Positions 9,001 through 12,000 of a stretch of DNA of 27,040 bases are shown piece by piece. A program made the position numbers. The first letter of the stretch is position 1. Each line of letters opens with the position of its first letter. Location: contig JBDRIL010000020.1 of NCBI GenBank assembly GCA_043815885.1, positions 1-27,040 of the forward strand, read 5' to 3'. Source of the stretch: an archaeon. GTDB taxonomy: Archaea; Iainarchaeota; Iainarchaeia; Iainarchaeales; 1-14-0-10-31-34.

Positions 9001-12000
9001 CAATTGCATTATATCACTTAAATGAAGGAAACGGCACAATAATAAATGATTCAAGCGGAAACAATTTGAATGGAAACATTGTTGGTTCCCCAACTTTTGT
9101 TGGCACTCCCTGGGTTGCAGGATTAAATTTTAATAGAAGCGGAGGAAATTACGCTGAAGTTCCGGATGATGATTTGTTTGATATAAACAGTTTTACTATT
9201 GAGGCTTGGATTAAGCCTGCAACAAACACTTCTTCTTGGAGCTACTACCACACAATTGTTTCAAAAGATGCCCAATATATTTTGGGATTCCGTGACAATC
9301 TCATTCAAGGAATTGTTAATCCATATGCAATTGAAGCCCCCTTTAATGGAACCGCCGGAAATTGGTATCACATAGCGTTTACTTATGACAGTATTACCAA
9401 AAGAATGAAATTATATGTTGGAAATACTGAAGTGGCTGCTTCAAATCCTTTATCGCATGGCCCTATTCCATCGAGTGGTTCTCTGAGAATTGGAAATCAC
9501 TCTGTTGCAGACAACCATAATGAATTTGATGGAGTAATTGATGAAGTGATTATTTCCAATTACGCCAAAACATCTTTTGATGTCTCAATTCCTTCTGATT
9601 CAATTCCTCCAGCAAAAATCACAGATTTAGGCATGAATTGTTCCTGGGCTCCAGTAGCAATGTCATGCATTCTTAATTGGACTGCTCCAGGAGATGACGG
9701 CAGTTCAGGCTTGGCTTCATCTTATGATATAAGGTTTTCCAGTAGCAATTTTCCTCCAACTACATGGGATGGGGCCCTGAAAGTAAACCATGAACCCCTT
9801 CCAGTTCCAGCAGGAACCCCACAGTCAATGACTGTAGATGGATTAGTTCCCCGCGATGCTTATTATTTTGTGATGAAAACAGGGGATGAAGTACCTAATT
9901 GGTCAGAAATGTCAAATGTAGCTGTCTGGACCAGAACTTCTTCCGACACAATCCCTCCATCTGCAATTACCAATCTTTCAGTTCCCTCATGCAGCAATAA
10001 TTCCTGTTCTTTGAGTTGGACTGCTCCTGGTGATGACGGAAGTTCAGGCACTGCTTCTCAGTATGATTTAAGGTATTCTATTTCAAATATCACTGAGTCT
10101 AATTGGAATTCAGCAACCCAAGCTACTGGTGAGCCTTCACCGCAGATTGCAGGTACAACTCAGTCAATGAGTGTAACTGGATTGAGTCCTTCAACTACTT
10201 ATTATTTTGCGATTAAAACTGCGGATGAAGTGCCTAACTGGTCAGCTATTTCCAATGTTCCAAGCAGAGCTACTGGTTCAACTTCTGATTCAACCCCTCC
10301 AACTGTTTCAATCACTTCTCCTTTGAATGGTGCAACTGTTTCTGGGGTTGTTTCTGTTTCAGCTACTGCTTCAGATAATGTTGGTGTAACTAAAGTGGAA
10401 TTTCATGTTTCAAACAGTTTAAAGTCAACTGATAATTCTTCTCCTTATTCTTTTGACTGGAATACCTTGCAGTATGCCAATGGAAATTATTCTTTGAAAG
10501 CAGTTGCTTTTGATGCAGCGGACAATAATGCTTCTAGTTCAATTAATGTTGATGTGAATAATAGTTCTTCTTCTGTTGTTTTTTGCGGTAATGGAGTTTT
10601 AGAACTAGGAGAAGCCTGTGAGAATGATTCTCATTGCAGTCCTGAAACACAGTGTGATTCAGCGAATAAGAGGTATGGAGAAAGAACTGCAAGTTGTAGT
10701 GCATGTGAATGTGATTATGGAAGCTGGAGCTGGAGCTCTACCTCTTACTGCAGTAATTGTAATTCTTGTGGGGATGATTCCTGTAATTGCGGGGAAACCT
10801 CTACGACTTGTTCTGGAGACTGTGGAGGGGGGGATGATACAATTCCTCCTTCTAGGCCTATTGGATTGACTGCCACAAGTGGAGAGCAAAAAGTTGATTT
10901 GGACTGGAATGATAATTCTGAAGCAGATCTTTCCCACTACATTGTATTTTATGGTTTGTCTTCTGGTTCCTATGACTGGAATGTAATGGTAACGAGTTCA
11001 AGTGCAACAATTCTGGATTTAGGGGAAGAAGTAAGATATTATTTTGCTGTAAAGGCAGTTGATTACACTGGAAATAAAAGCACTTTCTCTGACGAGGTTT
11101 CTGCTGTAACTTCAGCAGTTTCACTCAAGCCTCCAAAAAACATTAATATCTCTCTTACAGATGAAAAAATCAGGGTTAATTGGTCTTTTGCTGTTCCTGA
11201 ACCAGACCATTACGATGTATACAAGAATGGAAAGTTTGTTACTGCTACAACAGAAAATTATTACCTTGATTCCAAATACGAGAAAGGAGAAACTTATTCA
11301 TACTATGTAAAGAGTATTGCAATAGACGGTTCTGAGAGCGATAAATCAAAAACAGTGAGTATTTCAATTCCAGGGGAAGATCCATGCAGAAAGAACGGAG
11401 AATGTAATGAAGATTGCAATAGAACTGAAGACCCTGACTGCTTATGCATTGAAAACGGAATATGTGAAACTGAATTCGAGAACACAGAAAACTGTCCAGC
11501 TGACTGTGAAGAAATGCCAATAGATTATTACACTAATTTAAGTATTGGATTAGGGTTAGTGATTGTTTCAGCAGTAATCGCAGTAATCTTCTTCAAGAAA
11601 GCCTGATTCTTAGAATTTATTAGATGGGCCTGAGGAGAATTGAACTCCTGATCTTCACGATGTCAACGTGACGTCCTAACCACTAGACTACAGGCCCAAT
11701 CAGAACCTACGGTTCCGATACCTCCCTTATGAGGTATCGTTTTTTCGCCAGCCTTTTCCTAAAAGGCTGTCCGATACCCCCCCAATCAGAAAAACTACGT
11801 TTTTCCGATACCTTTTCCTTTTCACTACTACCTCACTTTGTTCGGTAATAGGATTTCCTCGCTTAATGCTCGGAAACAATCAATAACTAATATTCTTATT
11901 AGCTTAAAGAATTCCTTTAAAAAAGTTTTTTTAATTGAATGCATGTCTTGCAAACCTTTCCTCCTGTTGGAGCACCGCATTCCATGCATTCCTTTACCTC

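Follow-up and report, generated by a model that had tools for sequence, protein, structure and literature searches.

Bacterial genomes contain REP/BIME sequences, short imperfect palindromes that are mobilised by RAYT transposases, and in the AT-rich, reduced genomes of fungal mitochondria the GC clusters and double-hairpin elements represent small mobile hairpins. In archaea, the transposed bulge-helix-bulge (BHB) tRNA introns of the Thermoproteales (Fujishima et al. 2010) are described in PMC4033280 as alike short introns occurring in different tRNAs and at different positions, a similarity that is read there as intron gain by transposition. The same article reports a complementary leader/trailer helix beside a relaxed BHB motif for the split tRNA halves of Nanoarchaeum equitans (PMC4033280), and tRNA fragments made by mobile elements in archaea are documented in PMC3293823. 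Both the gain of archaeal tRNA introns and the abundance of long introns, leaders and trailers in tiny DPANN genomes pose an open question, and evidence for intron gain has so far come mainly from resemblances between intron sequences within a single crenarchaeal order.

The window analysed here, a stretch of 27,040 nucleotides from an archaeon of the order Iainarchaeales, carries two copies of a hairpin unit, module A, upstream of a tRNA-Val(GAC) gene (Table 1). A first-pass annotation had implied that this unit is a conserved stable-RNA-end signal of the Iainarchaeales; its description of the unit stood, whereas the implied role was drawn too narrowly, as about half of the copies are intergenic, the tRNAs concerned differ between sister genera and other lineages carry the unit as well. 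The explanation that we favour, and to which we give an even chance, is that module A constitutes a family of small self-folding, self-propagating hairpin cassettes that are tolerated in discarded RNA.

Module A and the tRNA-Val locus

Module A comprises ATCAG at its head, a hairpin core (GAACC-N3-GGTTC) and CGATACC-TCCYTT, together ~30 bases, and its fold is a hairpin of 9 bp, instead of the 5 bp assumed earlier, with a single conserved A.C mismatch. In an alignment of 101 copies 98.6% of the cells were paired and two-sided changes were present in five of eight stem pairs, values that were reached in none of 500 shuffles; the covariance search model did not include the three outer stem pairs. 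The fixed flanks and compensatory stem changes of the first-pass annotation were borne out. About 20 positions are conserved to more than 93%, and variation is limited to the inner stem and loop. The hairpin most likely folds as RNA. Its arms are near-palindromic, so that it forms from whichever strand is transcribed, and a constant end facing the gene therefore means that the hairpin, and not the tail, contacts the retained RNA. When folded, module A would consist of the 9-bp hairpin followed by a conserved ACCU and a pyrimidine-rich tail; the tails of many copies are T-rich. As annotated before, module A has no Rfam family, the sole match at the gathering threshold and up to E 10 being to tRNA.

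Table 1. Features of the tRNA-Val(GAC) locus, numbered from the first base of the window
Feature	Position	Strand	Basis
tRNA-Val(GAC)	11623..11698	-	ARAGORN; Rfam tRNA 11625-11697, 71.8 bits; 5' G at 11697
Module A copy 1	11699..11728	+	sequence; pattern scans; pair counts; covariance model 55 bits
Second hairpin	11716..11745	+	read from sequence
Module B (second module of the first-pass annotation)	11746..11778	+	pattern scan
Module A copy 2	11785..11818	+	pattern scans; covariance model 35.5 bits
Leader-start module, hairpin type CCTATTACCGA...GAGGTAGTAG	11823..11876	-	leader comparison by eye
AT-rich, TATA-like stretch	11886..11900	-	sequence only
PP-loop ATPase gene	11917..12855	-	ORF; Pfam PF01171

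Copy 1 is inverted relative to tRNA-Val(GAC), with its head 1 nt from the tRNA 5' end. It is composed of ATCAG (11699-11703), CCGATACC (11715-11722) and a TCCCTT tail (11723-11728), and positions 11699-11707 pair with 11711-11719 around the A.C mismatch at 11702/11716. The second hairpin shares sequence with the tail of copy 1; in it CGATACCTC (11716-11724) pairs with GAGGTATCG (11731-11739), followed by T6 (11740-11745), and C-rich/G-rich second hairpins of like kind were found behind many other module A copies. In module B, CGCC precedes a hairpin of AGCCTTTT and AAAAGGCT, after which come G and TCCGATACC, and the CCGATACC motif is shared with module A; this layout was seen in five copies of the genome (C14:3777, C20:11771, C29:19829, C45:6185 and C45:6264). 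Copy 2 belongs to a long-stem subfamily (GAAAAAC-TAC-GTTTTTC, with a TTTTCC tail) that is also located behind tRNA-Ser(GGA) on contig C29 and, in the rRNA operon, behind tRNA-Ala. The leaders of tRNA-Pro(UGG) and of several further tRNAs likewise begin with the leader-start module, which is also present upstream of 23S rRNA. The AT-rich stretch may, from its sequence, be the putative promoter of a modular tRNA-Val leader of ~215 nt, of which the two inverted copies would be mere parts. The PP-loop ATPase gene, upstream of tRNA-Val and on the same strand, served as synteny anchor for the comparison of leaders.

Screening of the genome with a loose pattern and a hairpin test gave 12 matches, compared with one in the reversed genome and 3, 3, 0, 0 and 0 in five shuffles, and seven of the 12 were located no more than 3 nt from the end of a tRNA or of 16S. 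The covariance model detected 15 copies, seven of them within 5 nt of a tRNA end, one behind the 16S 3' end and one opening the tRNA-Cys intron; copies are also found within the rRNA operon, between 16S, tRNA-Ala and 23S. All copies previously named on contigs C14, C26, C29, C45, C31 and C61 were recovered, including the long form in the tRNA-Cys intron, and the gene on C31, listed as tRNA-Trp, was called as tRNA-Gly(UCC) by ARAGORN. The tRNA-Cys copy lies inside the tRNA gene, the exons of which restore a cloverleaf, unlike the copies in the window and about half of all copies.

Contact with RNA gene ends and splice sites

Copies no more than 5 nt away from a called tRNA end had the ATCAG end against the gene in 21/21 cases in the set from the order and in 11/11 cases in a GTDB-wide set that partly overlaps with it in genomes; those that follow a 3' end stood in sense orientation, those that precede a 5' end were inverted. 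The constant polarity claimed earlier was thus upheld, whereas the gap of 2-7 nt to the RNA gene becomes 0-2 nt to the tRNA end when counted from ATCAG. Such contact with mature tRNA ends is left unexplained by the neutrality of a 'safe haven'. It would suit a terminal protective stem-loop, for which close contact is required, as in bacterial 5' stem-loops, and hence a functional cis-acting RNA under selection, an explanation that we consider unlikely on balance. Situated at the extreme end of the fragments that RNase P, tRNase Z, the splicing endonuclease or 16S 3' maturation sets free, module A would then block exonucleases or insulate tRNA folding, or it would act as a site of protein docking; in the docking variant a conserved DPANN protein would read the fixed flanks. 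The conservation of some 20 positions, with the inner stem and loop alone free to vary, is in line with this explanation, as is the tendency of wobble pairs to suit the locally transcribed strand (10 of the sense type against 2 of the antisense type in sense contexts; 1 against 2 in antisense contexts).

The gene order PP-loop to tRNA-Val was kept in 9/9 genomes of the family, in which the tRNA-Val loci were matched via the neighbouring protein gene, and the leader ranged from 24 to ~215 nt. In seven of the nine some hairpin abuts the tRNA-Val 5' end, five different hairpins being involved. The range of leader lengths and the variety of hairpins are mobility-like. The presence of some hairpin suits a cis-acting element, as does the finding that most 16S trailers of the order begin, as judged by eye, with a hairpin 4-8 nt past the 3' end. 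Against such an element, two of the nine genomes (G001 and G050) lack any hairpin at the tRNA-Val 5' end, and two of three leader copies in the present genome have no co-directional upstream gene remaining that they could protect. Hairpins of at least 5 bp abutted tRNA ends in 15/42 and 14/42 cases versus a background of 23%, with a crude detector that misses module A itself, so that enrichment is not clear. Nor is the unit confined to stable-RNA ends, as had been proposed: for 44/101 copies no tRNA was called within the fetched locus, about half stand elsewhere between genes, and the 28 copies beside a Pfam-supported neighbour gene were of mixed orientation (17 antisense, 11 sense). Presence in just 25/150 genomes of the order and the use of different tRNAs by sister genera argue in the same direction.

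Copies inside called tRNAs were positioned at the intron start (15/101 and 8/86; ARAGORN), at tRNA positions 37/38 and in the T-loop of many tRNA species. In some of these introns (A)AUCA(G), one base past the 5' splice site, begins the outer helix of the BHB, with a distal UGAU/CUGAU or the module's own GAU as partner. A strict hBHBh' motif, in which 3-nt bulges on opposite strands enclose a 4-bp helix and have further helices on their outer sides, was formed with the module A head as outer helix by just 10/189 copies, one of them a T-loop intron (L245), compared with 2.6 when the downstream sequence was shuffled. Module A pairs with a partial inverted module in the tRNA-Pro introns of L054, L055 and L061. 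The two window copies are placed in a leader and do not form the hBHBh' motif, and the geometry of module A at mature tRNA ends is not that of a bulge-helix-bulge. As predicted from sequence, the head-at-splice-site geometry of the intron copies is what the splicing endonuclease needs.

These introns raise the possibility, improbable in our estimate, of a mobile DPANN mini-intron that moves through RNA processing sites, its head supplying the splicing endonuclease with a portable outer helix. Released copies would be rejoined to other cut RNA ends and then fixed in DNA, and the cassette would seed new introns in the anticodon loop and T-loop as well as leaders and trailers, and would cross archaeal phyla. 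If true, this would be the first family in which archaeal intron gain and inter-phylum transfer can be traced copy by copy. An exotic mode of end maturation for want of enzymes was rejected, as the genome encodes the ordinary processing enzymes tRNase Z, RNase P RNA and EndA.

Spread and turnover across genomes

Within the order, module A is present in 12-19 copies in five genomes and in 1-4 copies in the other genomes that carry it. Its near-identical recurrence in other families, noted earlier, was confirmed and proved wider than claimed; by way of contrast, identity across the final 140 nt of 16S is just 78-91% in the order. A 21-base pattern of the module was found, in exact form, at 97 places in species genomes versus 0.27 expected by chance by our own arithmetic. 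Nor is module A confined to the Iainarchaeales, since genomes labelled as many other DPANN lineages carry it too; the labels of genomes with the 21-base pattern, in MAG records the depositors' own taxon names, include Woesearchaeota, Nanoarchaeota, Aenigmatarchaeota, Micrarchaeota, Altiarchaeota and others. Two matches lie in MAGs labelled as bacterial, one of which (L271) is without the tail and may be due to chance. Viral contigs gave no exact match of the module A 30-mer, and a search of the open full-text literature, which leaves most subscription journals outside, revealed nothing on module A or its 16-mer.

Module A turns over between genomes. Its subfamilies are genome-specific, with an identity in variable columns of 0.708 within and 0.651 between genomes, a difference as large as which was obtained in 0/2000 label shuffles. 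In sister genera it is found on different tRNAs or on different ends, and other elements are nested inside five copies. At 9/12 loci the order is a complete tRNA, a spacer, an inverted copy and, last, a duplicate of the final 17-25 nt of the same tRNA, beginning in the T-loop; in the present genome one such case was seen, on contig C26. A contig of a related strain has 36 nt in place of 173 nt of the tRNA-Val leader, in a setting where contigs break at repeats. Another contig skips 86 nt between the two window copies, which may be an assembly shortcut. No clean pair of filled and empty sites with a defined footprint was obtained from the genomes compared.

Patchy spread, genome-specific subfamilies, different tRNAs in sister genera, nesting and the tRNA-fragment junctions together favour a self-propagating element over a fixed signal. 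The horizontal spread of a selfish element, raised as a caveat in the first-pass annotation, thus fits the evidence better than does a fixed processing signal. The cassettes would inhabit the discarded parts of precursors, namely tRNA 5' leaders, 3' trailers, introns and the 16S trailer, together with other intergenic spacers, and they would probably spread in two ways, being copied from one tRNA-gene boundary to another within a genome and being transferred from one DPANN lineage to another. If transcribed along with their hosts, they would be cut away by RNase P, tRNase Z and the splicing endonuclease and would persist for that reason, presumably without harm. The flanks are far better conserved than a decaying selfish repeat needs, and a sequence-specific partner could account for this instead.

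As regards a possible MITE, which would have terminal inverted repeats and a short target-site duplication, the hairpin is the sole inverted repeat and inspection by eye revealed no short duplication at the junctions; at 9/12 loci it is the long tRNA 3'-end duplicates that flank the insert. No mobilising enzyme could be linked to module A among the families searched (IS200/RAYT-type transposases and reverse transcriptases). The IS200/RAYT-type transposase (PF01797) was present in 8/25 genomes with the module versus 35/125 others and reverse transcriptases in 3/25 versus 16/125, i.e. without association, and PF01797 was not found in G000, G004 and G022, genomes that are 91-94% complete.

Further candidates and known systems

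The copies could also be what integrative elements leave behind, as scars or as their termini, when they recombine with tRNA genes, although we regard this as quite unlikely. The cassette would then lie next to the attachment site and so come to stand against tRNA boundaries and beside duplicated tRNA fragments. The 17-25-nt duplicates lie directly against the head of the inverted copy, and the contact sites in tRNAs (anticodon loop, T-loop and 3' end) are the known integrase sublocations, as reported by Williams (2002). However, only about 45-135 nt separate the tRNA from its duplicated fragment, too little for an element, and neither inverted copies at 5' ends nor true introns with both exons are expected from integration at 3' ends.

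A transcription signal, either a sense-strand terminator or an unusual tRNA promoter, is very improbable. Copy 1 with the second hairpin does end in T6 and many tails are T-rich, as in a terminator, but T runs are missing after many copies, and copies occur inside the rRNA operon and introns; for a promoter, no TATA-like sequence is found at -26 and the variable stem length shifts any spacing, and the orientation to neighbouring genes is mixed. Slighter still is the chance of a hairpin bound by L7Ae that has a kink-turn pattern in both strands. Flanks UCAGA and UCCGA give the formal pattern GA-stem-NNN-GA either way, two copies, from two families (L040 and L094), are situated immediately upstream of l7ae genes, and L7Ae binds a K-turn in its own leader (PMC6298567). 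A kink-turn has invariant tandem sheared G.A pairs beside a 3-nt bulge. This candidate was rejected, as the would-be sheared G.A positions co-vary as Watson-Crick pairs (U2-A20 to C-G twice, C3-G19 to U-A once) and include several wobbles, and as a distinct native motif (CCRAUGA ... GGAGG) is present, by eye, in most of the 31 l7ae leaders of the order, with the cassette upstream of it in L149.

Three other candidates were dismissed. A cis processing stem is opposed by the lack of excess leader-trailer pairing in 42 tRNAs (mean duplex energy -2.24 versus -2.41 for mismatched pairs); the 16S processing stem lies outside module A. A ribosome-binding site for downstream genes is opposed by the spacing of head and start codon, which spans 16 to 378 nt when starts are called crudely, with AT-rich promoter-like stretches in between. 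Resemblance to the 16S 3' end (local alignment score 19, as high in 0.075% of random 30-mers; 18 for a 23S window) may be due to chance.

With strict polarity, module A recurs at intron starts, in T-loop introns, in the leaders and trailers of tRNAs, in the 16S trailer and beside duplicated tRNA fragments, and so connects these sites. As a traceable marker it could serve to follow the origin and movement of introns and gene transfer among co-living ultrasmall archaea, and to learn what the splicing endonuclease and end-processing enzymes tolerate beside their cut sites. For annotators, cassettes of this type matter in that they break assemblies and mislead tRNA and intron calls.

Taken as self-propagating cassettes, the copies resemble REP/BIME sequences in being short, GC-richer, imperfect palindromes with many intergenic copies, compensatory stem changes, mosaic arrays with other modules and genome-specific subfamilies; they differ in having no Y1/RAYT link and no GTAG-type 5' tetranucleotide, in touching tRNA ends and splice sites exactly and in having archaea as hosts. 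Like the GC clusters and double-hairpin elements of fungal mitochondria, module A occupies spacers, introns and sites beside tRNA and rRNA genes in AT-rich, reduced genomes, but sequence and hosts are unrelated and module A meets the retained RNA with a fixed polarity and to within 0-2 nt. Duplicated tRNA pieces adjoin the inserted DNA at module A loci as they do at the archaeal integration fragments of PMC3293823, although the module A insert measures tens of bases, not kilobases, and no recombinase gene is present within it. With the split tRNAs of N. equitans (PMC4033280), module A shares the pairing of a sequence behind a 5' piece with its complement ahead of a 3' piece, here in cis in the tRNA-Pro introns of L054, L055 and L061, whereas its hosts are complete tRNA genes and leader and trailer are not complementary. 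As with the Thermoproteales introns described in the same article, introns of many tRNAs have a sequence in common, since module A stands at their start, both at 37/38 and in the T-loop; unlike the sequences of those introns, it also occurs outside tRNAs, in leaders, trailers, the 16S trailer and protein-gene spacers and in both orientations, holds a fixed polarity to the gene and is near-identical across differently labelled DPANN phyla.

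Copies of the cassette and the tRNA-Val leader

The tRNA-Val(GAC) gene of the window is abutted by a cassette made up of an ATCAG head, a hairpin (GAACC-N3-GGTTC) and a CGATACC-TCCYTT tail. Its leader, ∼215 nt on the tRNA strand, consists of two copies of this cassette together with other hairpins and modules (see the table). In one contig of a related strain, 36 nt take the place of 173 nt of this leader. In the best-matching DNA sequencing run, one contig fuses position 11694 to 11781 and so lacks the 86 nt that separate the two copies; the population may contain a deletion variant, or the assembly may have taken a shortcut at the repeat.

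Features of the tRNA-Val leader in the window and positions of two further module families in the source genome (G000)
Feature	Position	Strand	Remarks
tRNA-Val(GAC)	11623-11698	minus	abutted by cassette copy 1
Cassette copy 1	11699-11728	plus	ATCAG-GAACC-TAC-GGTTC-CGATACC-TCCCTT; begins one base past the tRNA-Val 5' end
Second hairpin	11716-11739 (before T6)	plus	shares tail of copy 1; T6 at its end
Second module	11746-11778	plus	terminates in the CCGATACC motif, which the cassette also contains
Cassette copy 2	11785-11818	plus	stem longer than in copy 1
Further shared hairpin	about 11823-11876		part of tRNA-Val leader
AT-rich stretch	about 11886-11900		may be the leader promoter
PP-loop ATPase gene	11917-12855		leader sits between its stop and tRNA-Val
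Second leader module (AAACCG-ATTTG-CGGTTT)	C21:1130-1150, C45:5734-5760, C62:8192-8215, C61:16695-16717, others
Third module family	C26:34240-34290, C26:34860-34900, C29:17820-17870, C45:5985-6025, C19 and C45 trailers

Searching the 1.16-Mb genome with a loose pattern and a hairpin test gave 12 sites, compared with one in the reversed genome and zero to three in five shuffles, and 7 of the 12 lay ≤3 nt from a tRNA or 16S end. With a covariance model trained on 38 copies, 15 were detected in the same genome, among them long forms carrying foreign inserts. Every copy named in the first-pass annotation, which had described a hairpin module at tRNA and 16S rRNA gene ends, was recovered by the pattern and covariance-model scans, and Rfam yielded no fitting family for the cassette, as that annotation had reported; its tRNA-Trp on contig C31 corresponds to tRNA-Gly(UCC) in the ARAGORN call.

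Five copies are broken up by other small elements. The hairpins of two copies (C14:3659-3730 and C31:1575-1646) are split by an identical palindromic insert of ∼55 nt with inverted ends of ∼13 nt, which looks like a miniature element nested within the cassette. Other inserts occupy two further loops, one in the copy within the tRNA-Cys intron (C61:16748-16816) and one in the copy at C26:32210-32277.

Hairpin structure and position relative to genes

The arms of the cassette are near-palindromic (ATC-A-GAACC / GGTTC-C-GAT). In an alignment of 101 copies, pairing was observed in 98.6% of cells and both-sided changes at five of the eight pairs, values matched by none of 500 shuffles; as the three outer pairs were absent from the search model, they provide an unbiased test of pairing. 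An A.C at position 4/18, equivalent to G.U on the opposite strand, is present in 95 of the 101 copies, and wobble pairs lean, in small numbers, towards the locally transcribed strand. Some 20 positions, including the unpaired ACCU 3' of the hairpin, are >93% conserved, a figure that is partly circular because the copies were recovered with the model, and variation is confined to the inner stem, the loop and the far tail.

Positions were compared for 101 model matches from G000, four copy-rich relatives and 20 further genomes. Nine copies lie in sense orientation ≤5 nt behind a tRNA 3' end, 12 are inverted ≤5 nt before a tRNA 5' end, 15 occupy the intron start of a called tRNA, three follow the 16S 3' end (in G000, G001 and G063) and 44 belong to loci without a called tRNA. 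The ATCAG end faced the gene in all 21 copies ≤5 nt from a tRNA end, and likewise in 11 of 11 close copies of a second set, drawn from all GTDB species genomes and overlapping the first. Beside Pfam-supported protein genes the orientation was mixed (17 antisense, 11 sense; n = 28); the spacers that hold these copies are short, and a stop codon is often only a few bases away. Strong flank conservation and exact contact with tRNA ends would both be accounted for by a selected RNA element, whether a hairpin that protects ends or insulates or a site for a protein, but not by the selfish cassette that we favour. We regard this main rival as rather unlikely.

In at least six tRNA genes, a second leader module places its terminal hairpin, AAACCG-ATTTG-CGGTTT, 0-1 nt before the 5' end; its reverse complement lies behind the RNase P RNA 3' end (inverted, C14:17580-17626). 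This module thus follows the same rule of a hairpin touching a gene. A third module family (GCCCTTTCTTT ... AAAGAAAG) starts several long tRNA introns and also lies behind several tRNA 3' ends.

ARAGORN predicts introns in 24 of the 43 tRNAs that it detects in G000 (22 of 22-112 nt and two of 14 nt). Intronic cassettes begin one base past the 5' splice site. A strict motif (helix, 3-nt bulge, 4-bp helix, 3-nt bulge and an outer helix starting at the head) was matched by 10 of 189 copies versus 2.6 with the downstream sequence shuffled; one match, locus L245, has a 39-nt T-loop intron consisting of the cassette and CUGAT. Three tRNA-Pro(CGG) introns show pairing between the cassette and a partial inverted copy close to the 3' splice site. 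These matches and this pairing suggest that in such introns the head serves as the outer helix of a splice motif. Where the hairpin abuts a mature tRNA end, it lies 0-2 nt from the acceptor stem, in a geometry other than bulge-helix-bulge. Short T-loop introns composed of the cassette and CTGAT were seen at L222, L245 and L261, in tRNA genes missed by ARAGORN and in records labelled Nanoarchaeota or Woesearchaeota.

Distribution and turnover

Of 150 genomes of the order, 25 gave hits to the covariance model, five of them, from three families, with 12-19 copies and the remaining carriers with 1-4. An exact 15-mer of the tail was present in 14 of 121 genomes (reversed control, 0-1 per genome). 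An exact pattern of 21 fixed bases matched 97 stretches in the GTDB species genomes (596 Gb), where 0.27 were expected by our own arithmetic. According to the depositors' own record titles, the 80 matches listed out of these 97 comprised Woesearchaeota (17), Iainarchaeum (14), Nanoarchaeota and similar (8), Aenigmatarchaeota (7), Micrarchaeota (3), Altiarchaeota (2), Undinarchaeota, Parvarchaeota, Diapherotrites, Bathyarchaeia and Methanosarcinales (one each), unnamed archaea (22) and bacterial MAGs (2); one bacterial match, without the tail, may be a chance occurrence. As a reference, identity within the order over the final 140 nt of 16S is 78-91%.

Variable columns were more alike within genomes than between them (identity 0.708 versus 0.651, a difference reached by none of 2000 label shuffles), and subfamilies particular to each genome occur alongside a common master form. 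The tRNAs that bear the cassette differ between sister genera, and on tRNA-Ser(UGA) and tRNA-Ser(GGA) it even occupies the opposite end. The order PP-loop ATPase then tRNA-Val is held in all nine genomes of the family, with a leader ranging from 24 nt in the relative G050 to ∼215 nt in G000, and in seven of the nine the tRNA-Val 5' end is touched by a hairpin, five different ones being used. Among 30 16S trailers, the cassette was confined to genomes of this family (three good copies, two decayed).

Nine of 12 loci, which come from several lineages, share one layout: behind a complete tRNA lie a short spacer, an inverted cassette and a duplicate of that tRNA's 3' end, 17-25 nt long and starting in the T-loop. 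Some of these loci form tandem arrays. In G000, a sense copy located 98 nt downstream of tRNA-Leu(CAA) is preceded by 14 nt that duplicate the 3' end of this gene. Loci L216, L244 and L282 carry tandem arrays of 2-4 units downstream of tRNA-Lys or tRNA-Gln genes, each unit combining an inverted cassette with either a linker or the 3' fragment of a tRNA, and some arrays reach N stretches. A derivation from the ends of integrative elements would account for the duplicated tRNA fragments but leaves the 5' copies and true introns unexplained, and appears improbable.

Interpretation and nearest published cases

The best fit, to which we give about an even chance, is a self-propagating hairpin cassette. 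It would reside in discarded RNA and in spacers, would provide the outer helix of splice motifs in introns, and would move within and between DPANN genomes; we infer its transcription, processing and mobility alike. No association of the family with IS200/RAYT-type transposases or with reverse transcriptases was found, nor any exact copy in viral contigs.

A kink-turn was rejected: the flanks fit formally, but covariation at the decisive positions is that of ordinary base pairs, and l7ae leaders, although two cassette copies lie upstream of l7ae genes, have a different motif of their own. Most of 31 such leaders (L122-L151 and G000 C5:9191-9300) show CCRATGA and, 4-25 nt on, a GGAGG ribosome-binding site, a layout matching the known autoregulatory L7Ae K-turn (PMC6298567), with the binding site as one strand. 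A likeness of window 11699-11728 to the last 24 nt of 16S, that is the helix 45 3' strand and anti-Shine-Dalgarno tail (C14:25460-25489; 19 of 24 aligned columns identical), was likewise discarded as weak: 0.075% of random 30-mers reach its score, but a 23S window comes close to it. Most 16S 3' flanks of 30 genomes (L156-L185) have a lineage-specific hairpin 4-8 nt past the 16S end, and in G000 the true 16S processing stem, in which GAAAGAAATGAGTC pairs with GACTCATTTCTTTC (C14:25355-25400 with 27000-27020), lies outside the cassette. Exotic end maturation is not called for, as the genome encodes tRNase Z, RNase P RNA and EndA; leader-trailer complementarity within the same tRNA was not found. 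Irregular T runs and copies within the rRNA operon and introns argue against a terminator.

A full-text literature search, covering few subscription journals, returned no publication on this sequence family. Among published cases, the nearest found were transposed introns in Thermoproteales and split-tRNA leaders (PMC4033280), and the disruption of a tRNA by a mobile element (PMC3293823).
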